This document shows positions 21,114 to 40,553 of a stretch of DNA of 64,000 nt, piece after piece. The translations under genes and the position numbers were made by a program. Positions within the stretch are counted from its first letter, which is position 1; each line of letters starts with the position of its first letter. The notes below the pieces were generated by a model that did no database searches, was not told the origin of the DNA, and saw only the letters and a program-made list of their open reading frames with translations. Source of the stretch: Myxococcota bacterium (lineage in GTDB: Bacteria > Myxococcota_A > UBA9160 > UBA4427); NCBI GenBank assembly GCA_965250285.1, contig OZ252299.1, forward strand, positions 1,248,001 through 1,312,000. Reading direction: 5' to 3'.

Positions 21114-21709
21114 CACCGCGGCTCATCGTCTCGACCGGCAACCCCGGCAAGCTGCGCGAGTTCATCGAGATCCTCGGGCTCGAAGCCGGTGCGCTCGGCA
21201 CGCTGCGCGACGTGCCCGAAGTGGTTCTGCCCGAGGAGGGCGCGGAGTATCTGCCGAACGCCATCGCCAAGGCGCGCGCGGTGGCCGACCAGGCCGGGCT
21301 CCCGGCCATCGCGGATGACTCTGGGCTCGAGGTCGACGTGCTGGACGGCGCGCCCGGGCCACTGAGCGCCCGGTATGGCGGGCCGGGCCTCGACGACGCG
21401 GGGCGCGTCGCCCATCTGCTCGCCGAGATGGCCGCGCGGGGGGGTACACCTCGCGGTGCTCGCTTCGTCTGCATCGCCGCGCTGGCGATCCCGGGCGGCG
21501 AGACGCACACGGCGACCGGCGTCTGCGAGGGCGAGATCCTCGATGCACCGACCGGGGTCGGTGGCTTCGGCTACGACCCCGTCTTTCGGCCGACCGGCCA
21601 CGCCGTCTCGATGGCCGAGCTGCCCGGCGGCGTGAAGAACCGCATCTCGCATCGCGGTCGAGCGTTGGCCGAGCTGGCGAATGCGGTGGCCGCGGTGGTC
21701 GGGGCCTGA
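21110..21709 (+). CDS. rdgB: Non-canonical purine NTP pyrophosphatase (RdgB/HAM1)
   Basis: [28 protein letters not shown]; follows rph. Confidence 0.95.
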
Positions 21710-21810
21710 GACCCGAAGCGGCTCGCCATCTCGCATCGCGGTCGAGCGTTGGCCGAGCTGGCGAATGCGGTGGCCGCGGTGGTCGGGGCCTGAGACCCGA
21801 AGCGGCTCGC
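21643..21810 (+). repeat. Exact 84-bp tandem duplication spanning the rdgB 3' end and stop codon
   Basis: 21643-21726 is identical to 21727-21810. Confidence 0.95.
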
Positions 21811-21827
21811 CCGCCAAAGGAGCGGTG

Positions 21828-22103
21828 ATGCGCGCCCTGCCGGATGGGGTCTCGAGCTACAAGCGCACGCCCGAGTTCGAGGCGTCGACGGTGCCCGCCG
21901 GACTGCTGCGTTCGCACCGGACGAAGGCCGGCGTCTGGGGCGTGATCCATGTGCTCGAGGGCGAGCTCGTGTACCGCATCCTCGAGCCTTCGGTCGAAGA
22001 ACACGTGCTGCGACAGGGCTTCGAGGGCGTCGTCGAGCCCGAGGTGCCGCACCAGGTCGAGCCCCGGCCCGGCGTACGGTTCTACGTGGAGTTTCGTCGC
22101 TAG
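21828..22103 (+). CDS. DUF1971/TehB-N (YeaR-like) cupin protein
   Basis: YKRTPEF, HRTKAGVWG, VEPEVPHQV; AAGGAG RBS. Confidence 0.85.
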   Translation: MRALPDGVSSYKRTPEFEASTVPAGLLRSHRTKAGVWGVIHVLEGELVYRILEPSVEEHVLRQGFEGVVEPEVPHQVEPRPGVRFYVEFRR

Positions 22104-27473: not shown

Positions 27474-29165
27474 TTAGGCCGATGCGTTCGTGGTGCGCGC
27501 GCGCAGCTGACTGCGCTCAGCGACCAGCATCTTCAGCCCTTCGAGCGTGATCCAGACATCGAGCGCCAGGATCAGCGTGCCCGAGAGGGCGAGCAACCAC
27601 AGCGACCCGAAGTCGGCATAGTAGTTGATCAGGTTGCCGACCATCGCGAACGCCGTGGCCGTCGTGACGAAGAGCATCGGGACGATGGTGTACACGATCG
27701 GTCGACCCAGGCGCTGCAGCCAGATCGAGACGATCAGCAGCGTCACGCCGGCCACCAGCTGGTTGGTGGTGCCGAAGAGCGGCCAGAGGGCAAGACCGCC
27801 CTTGCCCCCGCCCTGCGTGATCGCGAGCAGCAGCGCGGCGCCGATCCCGATCGCGCCGGCGAGGAACCGATTGTCGAGCTGCTTGATCCCGTAGGCTTCG
27901 CCGAGCTCGCTGATCACGAGGCGCTGGATCCGCGCGCCGGTATCGAGCGACGTCGCAGCGAATGCGATCACCATCACGGCCATGAACGTCTCGGCGCCGG
28001 CGCGCGGAATGCCGAGCGCCGAGACGAACGTACCGCCGCCCGAGACGAAGGCGCCGAGCTTGGCCGCGAGCCCATTGGCCGCGCCCCAGCTCGCGTAGTG
28101 CGAGCTCCAGTGGTCCATGCTCGAGAAGCCCGCCGTCGCGGCGAGGGTCGCGAGCAGGGCGAGGCCGCCCTCGGCGAGCATCGCGCCGTAGCCGATCGGA
28201 CGGGCGTCGGTGGCGCAGGCGAGCTGCTTCGAGGTCGTACCGCTCGAGACGAGACCGTGGAAGCCGCTGATGGCGCCACATGCGATCGTGACGAACAGGA
28301 ACGGGATCATCGGCGGGGCACCTTCGGGCGAGGGGTTGTACGCCGGCGCCACGATCGTCGGCTGCAGCACGAAGAGCCCCGCCGTCAGGATGCACAGCCC
28401 GGTGACCAGCTGATGGCTGTTGAGATAGTCGCGGGGCTGCAGCAGCAGCCACACCGGCAGCACCGAGGCGACGAACGAGTACCCGAGCAGCAGCCAGACC
28501 CAGGTCGATACCGAGACGGTCTGGATCGCCGGAAACGCCTCGGCGAAGTCGTTGCCGAAGCCGATGGCCGTGAGCAGCAGACCAAAACCCACGAGCGAGG
28601 GCCAGAGCAGCGGCCAGCCCTTGCGGTGCACGCCCCAACCGAGTGTCATCGCCACGATGATCTGCACGTTGATCGGGAAGATCGAGCCCGGGTTGCTCTT
28701 GAAGAGCGTGCCGATGATGTAGGCGAACACCGCGAGCACGACCCAGATGAGCAGCGAGATCGTGACGAGGAAGAGCGTGCGGATGCGCGGCCCGACGACC
28801 TCGCCCGCCACCTCGCCGATCGAGCGGCCGCGGTGGCGGGCGCTGATGACCAGTGCAGAGAAGTCGTGGGCGGCGCCCATGAACAGGGTTCCGATCGACA
28901 CCCAGAGCAGCGCGGGCAGCCAGCCCCAGATGACGGCGATGGCCGGGCCGACGATCGGGGCCGCCCCGGCGATCGAGGCGAAGTGGTGGCCCCAGAGCAC
29001 CGACTTGCGGGTCGGCAGGTAGTCGACGCCGTCTTCGAACTCGCGCGACGGCATCGGCTCGTCGTCGCGCAGCCGAAAGATCGAGTCGGCGAGGAAGCGG
29101 CTGTAGTAGCGATAGCCGAGGCCGTAGATCGCGATCACGATGAAGGCGAGCACCGCAGCGTTCAT
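27474..29165 (-). CDS. cstA: Carbon starvation protein A family transporter
   Basis: GHHFASIAGAAPIVGP, TIACGAISGFH, LWPLFGTTNQL. Confidence 0.93.
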   Translation of the reverse strand: MNAAVLAFIVIAIYGLGYRYYSRFLADSIFRLRDDEPMPSREFEDGVDYLPTRKSVLWGHHFASIAGAAPIVGPAIAVIWGWLPALLWVSIGTLFMGAAHDFSALVISARHRGRSIGEVAGEVVGPRIRTLFLVTISLLIWVVLAVFAYIIGTLFKSNPGSIFPINVQIIVAMTLGWGVHRKGWPLLWPSLVGFGLLLTAIGFGNDFAEAFPAIQTVSVSTWVWLLLGYSFVASVLPVWLLLQPRDYLNSHQLVTGLCILTAGLFVLQPTIVAPAYNPSPEGAPPMIPFLFVTIACGAISGFHGLVSSGTTSKQLACATDARPIGYGAMLAEGGLALLATLAATAGFSSMDHWSSHYASWGAANGLAAKLGAFVSGGGTFVSALGIPRAGAETFMAVMVIAFAATSLDTGARIQRLVISELGEAYGIKQLDNRFLAGAIGIGAALLLAITQGGGKGGLALWPLFGTTNQLVAGVTLLIVSIWLQRLGRPIVYTIVPMLFVTTATAFAMVGNLINYYADFGSLWLLALSGTLILALDVWITLEGLKMLVAERSQLRARTTNASA

Positions 29166-31078: not shown

Positions 31079-31633
31079 TCACGCGGGCGGCGGGGGCGTG
31101 CGCGGGGGCGTGGACGCAGGCGGAGACGTGTCCTCGCCCGGCTCCCCCCAGCCGGGGATGCCGAGCCAGCGTCCACCGGCGATCGTGGCGCACGTGACCG
31201 CCAGCGTGATCGCGATCGCCGCGCCCGCGACATCGAGGCCGACGTCGAAGGCCGACCCGGTTCGGTCGGCGAGTGTCGCCTGACGGCGTTCGTCGAGGAC
31301 CGCGAGCAGCGTCGAGAAGGCCAGCGCCGTCACGCACGACAGCACCACCGGTGCTCGGCCGTACCGAAGCCGCTGTCGCACGTCGACGTAGCGCAGCGCG
31401 AGCACGGCAAAGACGCCGTACTCGATCGGGTGCGCGAGCTTGCGGATCGCCGCGACCCATCCGGCCCTCTCTTCGGGCGACGCGTCGGGCAGCAGCCACT
31501 CGAGCAAGGGGCCGAGGATGCGCGACGTCTCGGCCGCGCTGAAGTCGCTGCTGCCGAGCACCCAGATGAGGCTCGCCCACGCGAGCGCGAGCCCACCGTC
31601 GAGCCAGATGCGTTTCTCGTCCGAGAGTGCCAT
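31079..31633 (-). CDS. VanZ family membrane protein
   Basis: FSAAETSR, IRKLAHPIEYGVFA, LDERRQ...RTGS..DVGLD. Confidence 0.85.
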   Translation of the reverse strand: MALSDEKRIWLDGGLALAWASLIWVLGSSDFSAAETSRILGPLLEWLLPDASPEERAGWVAAIRKLAHPIEYGVFAVLALRYVDVRQRLRYGRAPVVLSCVTALAFSTLLAVLDERRQATLADRTGSAFDVGLDVAGAAIAITLAVTCATIAGGRWLGIPGWGEPGEDTSPPASTPPRTPPPPA

Positions 31634-31674
31634 GCGAAGTCGTCCGTTCGGCGCGTAGGGTAGTGTCCCGAGCG

Positions 31675-32745
31675 ATGTCGACCAGTGAACCGCGCACCGT
31701 CGGTCTCGTGTTCGAGACCTTCGACAGCTACGACCGAGCCGACCGCGACCCCGCCGACTGGCACGTCGAGTACGAGCCCGAAGCCACGATCGATGGACTC
31801 GCCGCTGCGCTCGAGTCGCGCGGGCACACGGTCGCCCGGCTCGGCACCCCGCACGCACTGCTGGAGCGCGTGGGTCGGGGTGAGCTGCCGAGGCTCGACG
31901 CGGCGCTCTGCATCGCCGAGGGCTTCGGCTCGCGCAACCGCGAAGCCTGGGGCCCGACGGTGCTCGAGATGGCGGGTGTGCCGCTGCTCGGCAGCGATGC
32001 GCTGACGCTGTCGCTCACGCTCGACAAGGCGTGGACGCACCGCACGGTCGAGGCGGTGGGTGTCCGCGTGCCCGCATGGGGGTTGCTCGAAGACGGACCC
32101 GCGGCCCGCGACGCGGCGCTGCCGGCCGACTTCCCGCTCTTCGTGAAGCCGCGCTGGGAGGGCACCGCCAAGGGCATCGGGCCCGCGTCGAAGGTCGGCG
32201 ACCGCGCCGCGCTCGAGGCGGCGGTGGCGCGGGTCGTGCGCGACTACGCGCAACCGGCACTGGTCGAGGCGTTCGTGCCCGGCGCCGAGTACACGGTCAC
32301 CGTGGTCGGCCACGCGCCGCGGCGCGCGCTGCCGGTGCTGCAGCGCGCGCTCCATGCCGCGACGGGGATCGGCCTGCACGCGATCGAAGGGGTGCACGAA
32401 GCCGACCGCGACGGCGCCGAATCGGCGGTGCCCGCCGACTACGCGCTGCCGGGCGAGCTCACGCCGGCGCTCGAACGCGAGCTGCAGGCGATCGCGCTGC
32501 GCATCTGCGAGACCCTCGAGGTGCTCGACTTCGCGCGGCTCGACTTCAAACTCGACGCACGGGGGCGTCCGGTCTTCCTCGAGATCAATCCGCTGCCGAC
32601 CTTCGCGCCGGACGGTACCTTCGCGATCCTCGCCGAGCTCGAGGGCAGGGCGACCGGCGAGCTGCTGGGCGACGTGCTGCAGGCGGCGCTCGACCGCGCC
32701 GTCGCGGCCCGGTGGCCCGGCGGGCGAAGGCCGTCGCTCGCCTGA
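31675..32745 (+). CDS. D-Ala-D-Ala ligase-like ATP-grasp amidoligase
   Basis: IAEG...REA, GSDALTLSLTLDK, PLFVKPRWEGTAKGI, LVEAFVPG.E, ARLDF, FLEINPLP. Confidence 0.85.
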   Translation: MSTSEPRTVGLVFETFDSYDRADRDPADWHVEYEPEATIDGLAAALESRGHTVARLGTPHALLERVGRGELPRLDAALCIAEGFGSRNREAWGPTVLEMAGVPLLGSDALTLSLTLDKAWTHRTVEAVGVRVPAWGLLEDGPAARDAALPADFPLFVKPRWEGTAKGIGPASKVGDRAALEAAVARVVRDYAQPALVEAFVPGAEYTVTVVGHAPRRALPVLQRALHAATGIGLHAIEGVHEADRDGAESAVPADYALPGELTPALERELQAIALRICETLEVLDFARLDFKLDARGRPVFLEINPLPTFAPDGTFAILAELEGRATGELLGDVLQAALDRAVAARWPGGRRPSLA

Positions 32746-32794
32746 GCCGGCGACCTCGTTCACCGACCCACTCCAGCCTCGCGGAGATCCGCTC

Positions 32795-33943
32795 GTGTCC
32801 AGTGCCGTTCCCACCGCTGCATCGAAGCCCGTCCGTGCGCGCGCCGCGACGGCCGGCGACGCGCCCGAAGGCATCGCGCCCGACGACTGGACGAGCTGGC
32901 GCTGGCAGATGCAGCACCGCATTCGCGACGCCGAGGCGCTGGCCGAATGGATCCATCCGACCGACGACGAAGCCCGCGCCATCGAGGCGCTGGCCACGCG
33001 CTTTCGCTTCGTGATCACACCGTACTACGCGTCCCTCATGGACCCCGCCGACCCGAGCTGCCCGGTGCGCCGGCAGGTGGTGCCCCGCATGGACGAGCTC
33101 GGTGACGCCGCCGGGCTCGCCGACCCGCTCGACGAGGTGGCCCACTCGCCCGTCAAGAACGTGATCCGCGTGTATCCCGATCGCATCGCGTTCTGCGTCA
33201 ACAACGAGTGCGCGCTCTACTGCCGCTACTGCCTGCGCAAGCGCATGGTCGGCGACAGCGAGTGGACGATGCAGAAGCGCGAGCTCGAGACCGCGCTCGA
33301 CTGGATCGAGCGCACGCCCGAGATCCGCGACGTGCTGCTGACGGGCGGCGATCCGCTCACCTTCGGCGACGACCGGCTCGGCTGGCTGCTCGAGCGGCTG
33401 CGGGCGATCTCGCACGTCGAGATCATCCGCCTCGGCACGCGGCTGCCGGTCACGCTGCCGCATCGCGTGACCGATGACCTGTGCGCGCTGCTCGAGCGGC
33501 ATCACCCCGTCTGGGTCAACACGCACTTCAACCACCCGAAGGAGCTCACGCCGGCCGCCATCGCGGCCTGCGATCGCCTGACGCGGGTGGGCATCCCGGT
33601 CGGCAACCAGTCGGTGCTGCTGCGCGGGTTGAACGACGACCTCGACACGATGAAGAGCCTCTGTGAGTCGCTCGTGCGCGCACGCGTGCGCCCCTACTAC
33701 GTCTATCAGGCGCAGCTGCTCGAGGGCACCGCGCACTTCCGCGTACCGATCGAAGAAGGCCTCGCGCTGTTCAAGCAGATGCGCGGCCGCACGAGCGGCT
33801 TCGCGATCCCGCAGTACGTGCTCGACACGCCTTATGGCAAGGTGCCCCTCGACCATGCCTGGGCGAAGGGGCGCGACGGCGACGACTTCGTCGTCGAAGC
33901 CTGGACGGGCGACCTCTGGCGCGAGCCGAATCCGCGCGATTGA
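32795..33943 (+). CDS. KamA-family radical SAM/PLP 2,3-aminomutase
   Basis: WRWQ, ITPYY, DPLDE, YPDR, CALYCRYCLR, LLTGGDPL, THFNHP, GNQSVLL, YGKVP. Confidence 0.92.
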   Translation: MSSAVPTAASKPVRARAATAGDAPEGIAPDDWTSWRWQMQHRIRDAEALAEWIHPTDDEARAIEALATRFRFVITPYYASLMDPADPSCPVRRQVVPRMDELGDAAGLADPLDEVAHSPVKNVIRVYPDRIAFCVNNECALYCRYCLRKRMVGDSEWTMQKRELETALDWIERTPEIRDVLLTGGDPLTFGDDRLGWLLERLRAISHVEIIRLGTRLPVTLPHRVTDDLCALLERHHPVWVNTHFNHPKELTPAAIAACDRLTRVGIPVGNQSVLLRGLNDDLDTMKSLCESLVRARVRPYYVYQAQLLEGTAHFRVPIEEGLALFKQMRGRTSGFAIPQYVLDTPYGKVPLDHAWAKGRDGDDFVVEAWTGDLWREPNPRD

Positions 33944-34063
33944 GCCCGCGGCCTGGGTGGGTCGCCTGCGCCCGTTCGCATGGGGTGGCGGGCGGGTGCT
34001 CTGCGCCTCGCCCTTCGAGGGTGAAGCGACGCGCCTTGCCGCATACTCCGGCCGGGGGGAACC

Positions 34064-35653
34064 GTGAGCGACGACGACGACGCGCGTCCGGACGCGGAAG
34101 ACGAGGGCGAGGGCACGCTCTCGGGTGCACGCGTGGGCGCCGCCGCGCTGCTGCTGGCGGCGAGCGTGCTGCTCTCGCGCGTGATGGGCTTCCTGCGCGA
34201 GATGGTGCTCGCGGCCGAGGTCGGCAACGGTCCTCAGACCGATGCGTACCGCGCGGCGTTCCAGATCCCCGATCTGCTGAACTATCTGCTCGCGGGCGGC
34301 GCCCTCGCCGTCGCGTTCACACCCCTCTACCAGCGCGCCCGATCCGAGGAGGGGCAGGCGGCCGCGACGGCGCTGTATCACGTGGTGATCTCGACCCTCG
34401 GTGCGCTTGCGATCGTCCTCACCGCGGTGCTCTGGTTCGCTACGCCGCGTCTGGTGGCGCTGCAATTCGGGGGCTTCGAGCCCGACGTACAGGCGCTCAC
34501 GTCGTCGCTCACGCGCGTCGTGCTGCCGGCCCAGATCTTCTTCATCACCGGCGGCGTGGCGCGGGCCGTGCTCATGGCGCACGGCCGATTCGCGGCTCAG
34601 GCTGCCGCGCCGCTCGTCTACAACGGCGGGATCATCGTCGGTGGACTCGCCACCGGCACCGTCGAAGGCTTCGCCTGGGGCGCGCTGGCGGGCGCCGCGC
34701 TCGGCCCCTTCCTGTATCCGCTGTGGGCGCTTCGCCGGATCGCGCCGCTTCGCGTCGAGGTGCGTCCGCTCGATCCGCGCTTTCGGCGCTACCTCTGGCT
34801 CGCGCTGCCGCTGATGGCCGGGGTCTCGCTCTCGACGGTCGACGAGTGGCTCGGTCGCTGGTTCGGCGCGCGCCTCGCCGAGGGCACGGTGGGTGCGCTC
34901 GGCTACGCGCGGCAGCTGATGATGGCGCCGGTCGCGGTGATCGGTCAGGCGGCGGCCGCCGCCGCGCTGCCGACACTCGCGGCCCTGTACGCGAAGGGCC
35001 AGGGTCGGGCCCTCGACGATTCGCTCTCACGCACCCTGCGCGTCACGCTCGCGCTCTCGATGCTCGCCGCCGTAGGGCTCGCCCTCTTTGCCAGGGAGAT
35101 CGTCGAAGTCCTCTATTTCAGAGGACGTTTCACGGCGCAGGATGTCGTCGACGTGTCGGCGATCCTGCGGGTTGGCGCGTGCGCCGTGCCGGCCTGGATC
35201 GCGCAGCAGGTCGGGGTGCGGGCCTTCTTTGCACGCAGCGACAACTGGCGACCGATGATCCTGAACAGCGCGCTGCTGGTGGCGTCGATCCCGCTCTATC
35301 TGCATCTCGGTGACCGCTTCGGCGCGCCGGGCATCGCGGGCGCCGGTGCGATCGCGATGACGGTGAACGCGGTGGCCACGCTCGGCTGGGCGCGGCTGCG
35401 CTTCGGCGGCCCCGCGGTCGCGCCGCTAATCGCCACGCTCGCGCGTTCGCTCGCGATCGCCGGCGTCGCCGGTGCGCTCTCGCTGGCGCTCCCTGCCTTC
35501 GACCTGCCGATGCTCGGCGCCGCTTGGGGACGCCTGCTGAGCGCTGGGTTGCTCTACGGTCTCGCCGCGATCGCAGGGGCGATGCTGCTCGGCGACGACC
35601 CGATGAAGGCGGCCGTGGCCACGCTCACGCGCGGGCGACTCGGTCGGCGCTGA
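34064..35653 (+). CDS. murJ: Lipid II flippase MurJ/MviN family
   Basis: SRVMGFLRE, DAYRAAFQIPDLL, AGGAL..AFTP, YARQLMMAP, RGRF. Confidence 0.88.
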   Translation: MSDDDDARPDAEDEGEGTLSGARVGAAALLLAASVLLSRVMGFLREMVLAAEVGNGPQTDAYRAAFQIPDLLNYLLAGGALAVAFTPLYQRARSEEGQAAATALYHVVISTLGALAIVLTAVLWFATPRLVALQFGGFEPDVQALTSSLTRVVLPAQIFFITGGVARAVLMAHGRFAAQAAAPLVYNGGIIVGGLATGTVEGFAWGALAGAALGPFLYPLWALRRIAPLRVEVRPLDPRFRRYLWLALPLMAGVSLSTVDEWLGRWFGARLAEGTVGALGYARQLMMAPVAVIGQAAAAAALPTLAALYAKGQGRALDDSLSRTLRVTLALSMLAAVGLALFAREIVEVLYFRGRFTAQDVVDVSAILRVGACAVPAWIAQQVGVRAFFARSDNWRPMILNSALLVASIPLYLHLGDRFGAPGIAGAGAIAMTVNAVATLGWARLRFGGPAVAPLIATLARSLAIAGVAGALSLALPAFDLPMLGAAWGRLLSAGLLYGLAAIAGAMLLGDDPMKAAVATLTRGRLGRR

Positions 35654-36706: not shown

Positions 36707-36926
36707 GGATCCTTCGGCGTCGGGGTTCCGGCGCGGCGCGGGGGCGGCGCGAACGTAGGCGAGTTTGCTCGACTGGGCACAGCGCATTGGCGCTTGACGG
36801 GGCGACGCGAGCGTCATTCGCCGAGGTCCGTCAGAATGGGAGAATGGTTCTCGGGATGTGTGACAAGTGCTCGTTCTGCAGCGGTTTTCGCTCGCGCATC
36901 GCATGCGCGCTGACGGGCCCTCGCGG

Positions 36927-40553
<3,627 letters not shown>

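Follow-up and report, generated by a model that had tools for sequence, protein, structure and literature searches.

Lysine, glutamate and arginine are the substrates known for the characterised radical S-adenosylmethionine (SAM) 2,3-aminomutases. The logic of an aminomutase combined with an amide ligase has precedents among known systems, and the pair of genes described here falls outside the membership of each of them. The pair lies in a stretch of 64,000 nucleotides from a Myxococcota bacterium (the window; contig OZ252299.1, positions 1,248,001 to 1,312,000, C1:1248001-1312000 in our numbering of the source genome G000, which is a single contig of 6.25 Mb and 95% complete). It consists of a Ddl-fold ATP-grasp ligase of a single-gene subtype (core gene 1; P0001, 356 amino acids, positions 31675-32745 of the window, forward strand; Dala_Dala_lig_C 68.7 bits) and a KamA-family radical SAM/pyridoxal phosphate (PLP) 2,3-aminomutase of a 'YQAQ' subtype (core gene 2; P0002, 382 amino acids, 32795-33943, forward strand; TIGR00238). 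The ligase–aminomutase pair is a unit of inheritance: the two genes are kept, lost and sometimes fused together in three bacterial lineages. A search of the open-access literature, supplements aside, found no publication on this pair, which does not establish its absence from print.

The mutase shares with lysine 2,3-aminomutase (LAM; KamA/AblA, structure 2A5H) the radical SAM/PLP fold, the CxxxCxxC motif and the equivalents of Arg134, Asp330 and Lys337. It differs from KamA/AblA in having Gln where Asp293 is found and in lacking two residues ahead of the PLP lysine; its C-terminus is also shorter and its score is below the AblA cut-off. In the AblA/AblB route to N-epsilon-acetyl-beta-lysine a beta-amino acid is likewise made and then acylated (ablAB; part of PMC1224877); the partner of AblA is an acetyltransferase, whereas the partner here is an ATP-grasp ligase. 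The blasticidin S cluster, according to the annotation of the record that holds it (L203), also combines a specificity-shifted aminomutase, BlsG, with an ATP-dependent carboxylate-amine ligase. BlsG and our mutase have the short xxGK loop in common; at position 293, however, BlsG retains Asp, and at 330 it has Thr (YHCD), an arrangement of which the mutase, with Gln307 and Asp344 (YQAQ), is the mirror image. The blasticidin ligase has no significant similarity to P0001 (E 0.41) and there are no nucleoside genes at the locus. Ddl/VanA-type ligases are the closest solved fold to P0001 and have the same ATP/Mg residues and N-terminal Glu, but P0001 scores below TIGR01205 and far below all Van cut-offs, has His changed to Glu82, YxxKY to GLHA and Gly to Thr309, and a real Ddl is encoded separately. 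No vanH, vanX or vanRS was found among the 15 window open reading frames (ORFs) scanned around the locus.

Further systems have a comparable composition. In pyrrolysine synthesis, a radical SAM rearranging enzyme (PylB) is likewise found with an amide ligase of the Ddl superfamily (PylC), as stated in part of PMC2933860. However, PylB is biotin-synthase-like and not KamA-like, and PylC is a more distant fold match to P0001; no pylD, pylS or pylT was seen at the locus, where no search was aimed at them. The elongation factor P (EF-P) beta-lysylation system EpmA/EpmB is another case of a KamA-family mutase with a ligase; the pair differs from it in scoring below the EpmB cut-off, in the lack of an epmA match in G000 and in not lying beside efp. 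Ligases of the same family as P0001 (about 30-40% identity, with shared donor-side residues) are also found in two kinds of uncharacterised locus: a cassette of a LAM, two Ddl-like ligases and a GNAT protein (with or without a deacetylase), and loci of tandem ligases with a DmpA/S58 peptidase. The pair differs from both, having a single ligase, a Q-type mutase, no GNAT protein and no S58 peptidase. Cassettes of a YQCD/YHCD-type aminomutase with two Ddl-like ligases and a GNAT protein and/or deacetylase are seen in L227 (5988-11827), L078, L086 and L228, and are additional to the pair in the genomes G038 and G036.

The mutase belongs to the KamA family by its TIGR00238 score (334.5 against a cut-off of 199.2), its CxxxCxxC motif, its PLP lysine and its LAM fold. 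The motif is located at residues 139-146 (C139, C143 and C146), and R148, D344 and K349 are kept, the last in a DTPxGK motif with the two-residue deletion ahead of it. Residues 27-368 align with 2A5H, and the structural model (predicted local distance difference test, pLDDT, 89.6) gives a template modelling (TM) score of 0.83 to it. None of the more specific models is reached: the scores are 412.6 against 525.4 for the lysine 2,3-aminomutase equivalog (TIGR03820, AblA/KamA; relatives 407-452), 435.3 against 650 for glutamate 2,3-aminomutase (TIGR04368), 417.1 against 600 for arginine 2,3-aminomutase (TIGR04468, BlsG) and 245.5 against 369.3 for EpmB. The mutases of three relatives are likewise under the cut-offs of these four equivalogs.

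Counted on the alignment, Arg134, Asp330 and Lys337 of 2A5H correspond to R148, D344 and K349, and Asp293 corresponds to Q307. The combination Q307/D344/R148/K349 is present in all 134 distinct sequences of at least 57% identity. In a tree of 57 sequences (a random 40 of the Q-type and all 17 others), 39 of the 40 sampled Q-type sequences form one branch (support 100/98). Among the references, AblA-annotated and other LAM-like proteins have Asp/Asp at positions 293/330 and BlsG-annotated proteins have Asp/Thr. We take Asp293 and Asp330 of LAM to be the residues which hold the epsilon-amine of lysine, and glutamate mutase presumably has Lys/Asn at these positions. There is also a change from Leu118 to Ala132 near the mutase pocket; Ala132 is found in the D-type sequence L185 as well. 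Because Q307 replaces Asp293, the substrate of the mutase is likely to have a neutral, amide-like or hydrogen-bonding side chain rather than the free epsilon-amine of lysine. As to the candidates, glutamine is our first guess and N-epsilon-acyl-lysine the second.

The ligase has the three-domain ATP-grasp fold of Ddl with its ATP/Mg residues (K118, K158, E198, R288, D290, E303 and N305), and in the alignment its E32 takes the place of the N-terminal Glu of Ddl. The model (pLDDT 91.7) has a TM-score of 0.73 to DdlB. In the structure search (VIA-align), DdlA is matched with Z 28.6, a root mean square deviation of 3.0 and 303 aligned residues, ArgX/LysX with Z 23 and PylC with Z 17.9; among the matches listed no solved ligase is closer than Ddl. 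Compared with the Ddl of G000 itself, the ligase has Glu82 (AEG) for the histidine of the HG motif, GLHA for the YxxKY loop and Thr309 for the glycine after ExN; we take the HG motif and the YxxKY loop to be D-Ala sites of Ddl. The scores are below the cut-offs for D-Ala-D-Ala ligase (TIGR01205: 90 against 245.65; PRK01372: 92.5 against 243), and the best Van-ligase model gives 75 against 495 bits. R224 and H235 are invariant in the 142 ligase orthologues and T309 is present in 138 of them, whereas 30 more distant relatives mostly have V/I, Y and G at these positions (224/235/309); E32, E82, R89 and E90 are common to both groups. The donor side of the ligase thus resembles the wider family, and the acceptor side appears to have been rebuilt in step with the change in the mutase.

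The preliminary description had proposed a check for a separate housekeeping ddl, and there is one: a canonical Ddl (346 bits) is encoded in G000 at C1:5643592-5644713 (L001:11596-12717; matched at C1:5643673). A canonical Ddl is over the cut-off in 36 of the 41 genomes of the order and in 29 of the 31 genomes of a second set; since it is retained, the ligase was ruled out as a replacement Ddl. The housekeeping ddl of G000 is located outside the dcw cluster and is flanked, by eye, by sulfatase-like and LarE-like genes. An orphan Ddl-like ATP-grasp gene is also found in G000 (C1:2809718-2811049; L002:8046-9047), with 107 bits to TIGR01205, which is below the cut-off, and no mutase neighbour; it adjoins, by eye, an error-prone DNA polymerase III alpha-like gene. 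The distant relatives of the ligase (L069-L088) are often encoded in tandem or fused into two-domain Ddl-like proteins, the latter about 680 amino acids long, and an S58/DmpA peptidase is found beside them in 11 of 20 loci, two of which also have a capC-like gene cluster alongside. The DmpA/S58 peptidase was considered as a third component of the pair and rejected: it flanks distant tandem ligases, but G000 has no PF03576 match.

The distribution of the two genes follows the pair. Close homologues of the genes of the locus are found in records titled Myxococcota or Deltaproteobacteria UBA9160. The lineage labels of relatives are record titles and some look doubtful: the Myxococcota-type block is found in records titled Spirochaetaceae, and the phylum of the 'Gemmatimonadota' record comprises only 10 genomes. 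Mutase orthologues of at least 71% identity are present in 34 of 40 relatives of the order. Among 301 Rhodothermia-class genomes, 100 contain the ligase and 101 the mutase (both: 97, ligase only: 3, mutase only: 4, neither: 197); the nominal Fisher p for this co-occurrence is 9e-70, which is overstated as the genomes are kin. In the Methylomirabilota-type phylum (Rokubacteria-titled records), 8 of 201 genomes contain the ligase, and all 8 carry the mutase at a separate place. Also, in 14 genomes with a mutase lacking an adjacent ligase, an orthologue of the ligase is found elsewhere in 10. Four stop-free in-frame ligase–mutase fusions were found, three of them in the lineage of the window (L146, L151 and L152) and one in Rhodothermia (L264); in L279 and L280 the gene order is reversed and the genes still abut. 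Joint presence and absence, the fusions, the reversed but abutting order, the active-site residues that vary together and the independence from murJ identify the pair as the unit. The view of the preliminary description that mutase and ligase are one functional unit with no known product is supported; the membership of MurJ and VanZ, which it had included, is not. Salinivenus iranica CB7 and S. lutea DBO are cultured carriers of the pair.

The pair is flanked by a divergent gene for a small membrane protein of the VanZ family (vanZ-like; 31079-31633, reverse strand, 184 amino acids, Pfam VanZ 37.7 bits) and by murJ, the gene of an MviN-type lipid II flippase (34064-35653, forward strand, 529 amino acids, Pfam MurJ 215.8 bits). 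The intergenic gaps are 41 bp between vanZ and the ligase, 49 bp between ligase and mutase, and 120 bp between mutase and murJ; coordinates and family matches of all four genes agree with the preliminary description. It had noted no efp/epmA, ablB or lysine-fermentation genes in the window; the single efp of G000 is about 258 kb off and G000 has no epmA match, while no genome-wide search was aimed at ablB or lysine-fermentation genes. Up to 1.5 kb from the mutase, 27 of 29 relative loci have the ligase on its upstream side, 24 have murJ on its downstream side and 18 have vanZ; since they recur to this extent, the four-gene order is beyond chance. Two unrelated members of the syntenic block served as synteny controls: the carbon-starvation transporter gene cstA (27474..29165, reverse strand) and a hydantoinase/oxoprolinase A-B fusion (36867..40553, forward strand; the longest ORF, with the true start probably slightly downstream). 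In 20 longer loci of the order, picked for long contigs and centred on the ligase–mutase pair, the ligase is present in 20, murJ in 19, the mutase in 18, the oxoprolinase in 16, vanZ in 14 and cstA in 13. As cstA and the oxoprolinase are kept about as often as vanZ, the block is conserved as a whole, unrelated genes included.

Outside the order the neighbourhood is different. A scan of species genomes for the mutase was restricted to the best 80 of 584 loci, and among these no match to murJ or vanZ was found in the 23 loci titled Rhodothermota, Bacteroidota, Gemmatimonadota or unnamed bacterium; the ligase is nearby in 20 of the 23. Two further sets of Rhodothermia-class loci, of 30 and 20 and overlapping in part, gave no match either. 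The four-gene neighbourhood, whose conservation had been proposed earlier as a check, is conserved inside the order, and there cstA and the oxoprolinase are conserved to about the same extent as vanZ. Where the pair is absent and murJ is kept, cstA is directly joined to murJ in G006 and G012 (94-95% complete) and vanZ is joined to murJ in G009 and G015, while in G007 murJ is intact and the pair beside it is reduced to fragments. The proposal that MurJ and VanZ are parts of a dedicated four-gene envelope system is not supported: relatives without the pair keep murJ, and neither gene is matched at the loci examined outside the order.

In G000, murJ is the only MviN-type gene (216 Pfam bits, against at most 52 for four other matches) and the single BLASTP match among 36,653 six-frame ORFs; with TIGR01695 it scores 231.8 bits, just below the cut-off of 235.55, and the other matches in G000 at most 51. 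A separate housekeeping murJ, which the preliminary description had wanted looked for, is thus missing, one of the outcomes that it had itself counted against its proposal. Across 41 genomes of the order there is one MviN-type match in 36, two in 4 and none in 1. G000 has ddl and murB among its other peptidoglycan genes. R18, R24 and R270 are cavity arginines of MurJ, according to parts of PMC9973255 and PMC4790310. The equivalents of R18, R24 and D39 are kept here; the equivalent of R52 is Asn, and the position of R270 is Gln with an Arg one residue earlier (relatives mostly have K/R at 270). The unusual MurJ motifs of the lineage (PDLLNYLLAGG and ARK/RL) are identical in genomes with and without the pair. 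It is likely that murJ is the housekeeping lipid II flippase gene and not an extra copy, and that murJ and vanZ are lineage-level neighbours outside the ligase–mutase unit. In L027, L135, L137, L139 and L182 the place after the mutase is taken by another type of MurJ (motif PNLLQNLFGEG), which has about 30% identity to that of the window and appears to be either ancestral or a replacement made in place. A second VanZ-family gene is found in G000 at C1:1715577, and a scan of the locus for promoters and terminators gave nothing above shuffled sequences. These results caution against taking the murJ/vanZ neighbourhood here for a resistance or wall-modification operon.

Concerning the product of the pair, which would be an undescribed one, we lean towards a small cytoplasmic beta-aminoacyl amide (a beta-dipeptide), whose beta-amino acid would come from the mutase and would be condensed with an amine by the ligase. 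From its family, its fold and the kept cofactor residues, the [4Fe-4S]/SAM/PLP enzyme would shift the alpha-amino group of its substrate to C3, and Q307 suggests that the side chain of this substrate would be neutral and hydrogen-bonding. The Ddl fold suggests that the ligase would spend ATP on turning the beta-amino acid into an acyl-phosphate, which it would then join to an amine; Arg224, invariant and located on the rebuilt acceptor side, suggests that there may be a carboxylate on this amine. Several points weigh against such a product. No third gene (peptidase, transporter or acceptor) that would account for the fate of the product recurs beside the pair across lineages. A single acid-to-amide change may still allow lysine. 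A bulk osmolyte role is disfavoured by what part of PMC1224877 gives for Salinibacter ruber (few organic solutes) and Rhodothermus marinus (mannosylglycerate), neither being an established carrier of the pair. The remaining points come from neighbouring wall genes, which recur: murJ is beside the pair in 19 of 20 loci of the order of the window; the ligase still adjoins murJ in G019 and G032, where the mutase has moved or was not found; and an extra MurB, whose N-terminus has a conserved extension of about 90 residues, is encoded upstream of the ligase in 9 Methylomirabilota-type genomes (L213-L218 and L231-L233, e.g. L215:4955-6295), with a crcB gene between the two in G224.

These neighbours suggest an alternative, a reduced form of the preliminary proposal, which we consider unlikely: the beta-dipeptide would end up in the wall, where it might, for instance, modify the stem or bridge or, through MurF, replace D-Ala-D-Ala. 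Lipid II so modified would be flipped by the ordinary MurJ, and selection would keep the genes near wall genes. The Ddl fold with its N-terminal Glu agrees with this, as does the orientation of the pair, which in most of the order is that of murJ, also in the five loci with the different MurJ type. Likewise, the murB preceding the ligase is a second one (another is found elsewhere in 5 of 5 genomes tested), and in G455 the ligase follows a gene with its best scores, below cut-off, to DgcA and L-Ala-D/L-Glu epimerase models. However, the murB link belongs to one small clade (8 of 201 genomes) and counts as one event, the G455 case is likewise single-clade, and the murJ link is the feature by which the locus was selected. 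The Rhodothermota-type loci without murJ or vanZ matches, whose scanned neighbours are mutually unrelated apart from ftsX a few genes off in some, also speak against a wall role, as do the retained canonical Ddl and the unusual MurJ motifs, which are unchanged in genomes without the pair. It is because the extra murB precedes the ligase that a wall role keeps some weight. A broader version seems to us slightly more doubtful: the YQAQ mutase would have a new specificity (glutamine or N-acyl-lysine), and the beta-dipeptide would be built into peptidoglycan or another lipid-linked envelope polymer as an undescribed wall chemistry of UBA9160-type Myxococcota, Rhodothermia and some Methylomirabilota. 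The location of the ligase by murJ in one lineage and by the extra murB in another would then have an explanation.

The other alternatives concern the substrate. The mutase may still be a lysine 2,3-aminomutase, so that the pair is either a stripped-down form of the widespread cassette of LAM, two Ddl-like ligases and GNAT protein, making a beta-lysine amide, or feeds the beta-lysylation of EF-P. The mutase is 44-49% identical to LAM/AblA-type proteins and keeps the equivalents of R134, D330 and K337; the donor-side residues E32, E82, R89 and E90 are common to distant ligases, including those beside YQCD-type LAMs; and the nearest D-type sisters of the mutase (Limnochordales, L185/L186) are also beside one ligase. 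The EF-P of G000 carries PGKG. We regard this alternative as improbable, as Q307 is invariant and the pair and a separate YQCD cassette coexist in some genomes (G038, L227; G036, L228). An EpmA-like gene is also not linked to the mutase across the 41 genomes (both: 20, mutase only: 15, including G000, EpmA only: 4, neither: 2), and the best epmA match in the 95% complete G000 has 40 bits against a cut-off of 287. The specific form in which the ligase replaces EpmA was rejected on account of this independent variation of the mutase and EpmA-like genes. More improbable still, in our judgement, is the opposite order of reactions, in which the ligase acts first, acylating the epsilon-amine of lysine (or an amine on a protein or lipid), and the resulting neutral N-epsilon-acyl-lysine is what the mutase isomerises, its amide pairing with Gln307 and Asp344. 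It explains both the Asp-to-Gln and the Leu118-to-Ala132 changes, as well as the missing dedicated peptidase or exporter, and has a precedent in PylC, a Ddl-superfamily enzyme proposed to form the pyrrolysine amide bond (part of PMC2933860). However, it has no direct evidence, Ala132 occurs also in the D-type L185, and PylC is structurally further from the ligase than Ddl.

If the preferred reading, a cytoplasmic beta-aminoacyl amide, is true, the pair would add another aminomutase substrate and a new enzyme forming beta-peptide bonds, both useful for beta-amino-acid biocatalysis. With the pair in about one-third of the Rhodothermia-class genomes and in 34 of 40 relatives of the order, its product would be common in lineages whose metabolites are barely studied. 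Recurrent neighbours in Rhodothermota (a GAF-like membrane protein, a cyclase family, DUF498, FadL/GDSL and others) were considered as partners and rejected, none being common to the order of the window. One of these lineage-specific neighbours is a membrane-anchored protein of about 460 amino acids with GAF-like features and no Pfam match, which often follows the mutase (L165:9352-10767 and 12 related loci). Three genomes of the order (G009, G012 and G015; 71-95% complete) contain an EpmA-like gene (259-269 bits, under the cut-off) and no KamA-family match with P0002 as the query. Elsewhere in the window, a short direct duplication is located at about 21680-21830, where the start of the peptide repeats inside the ORF 21681-22103.

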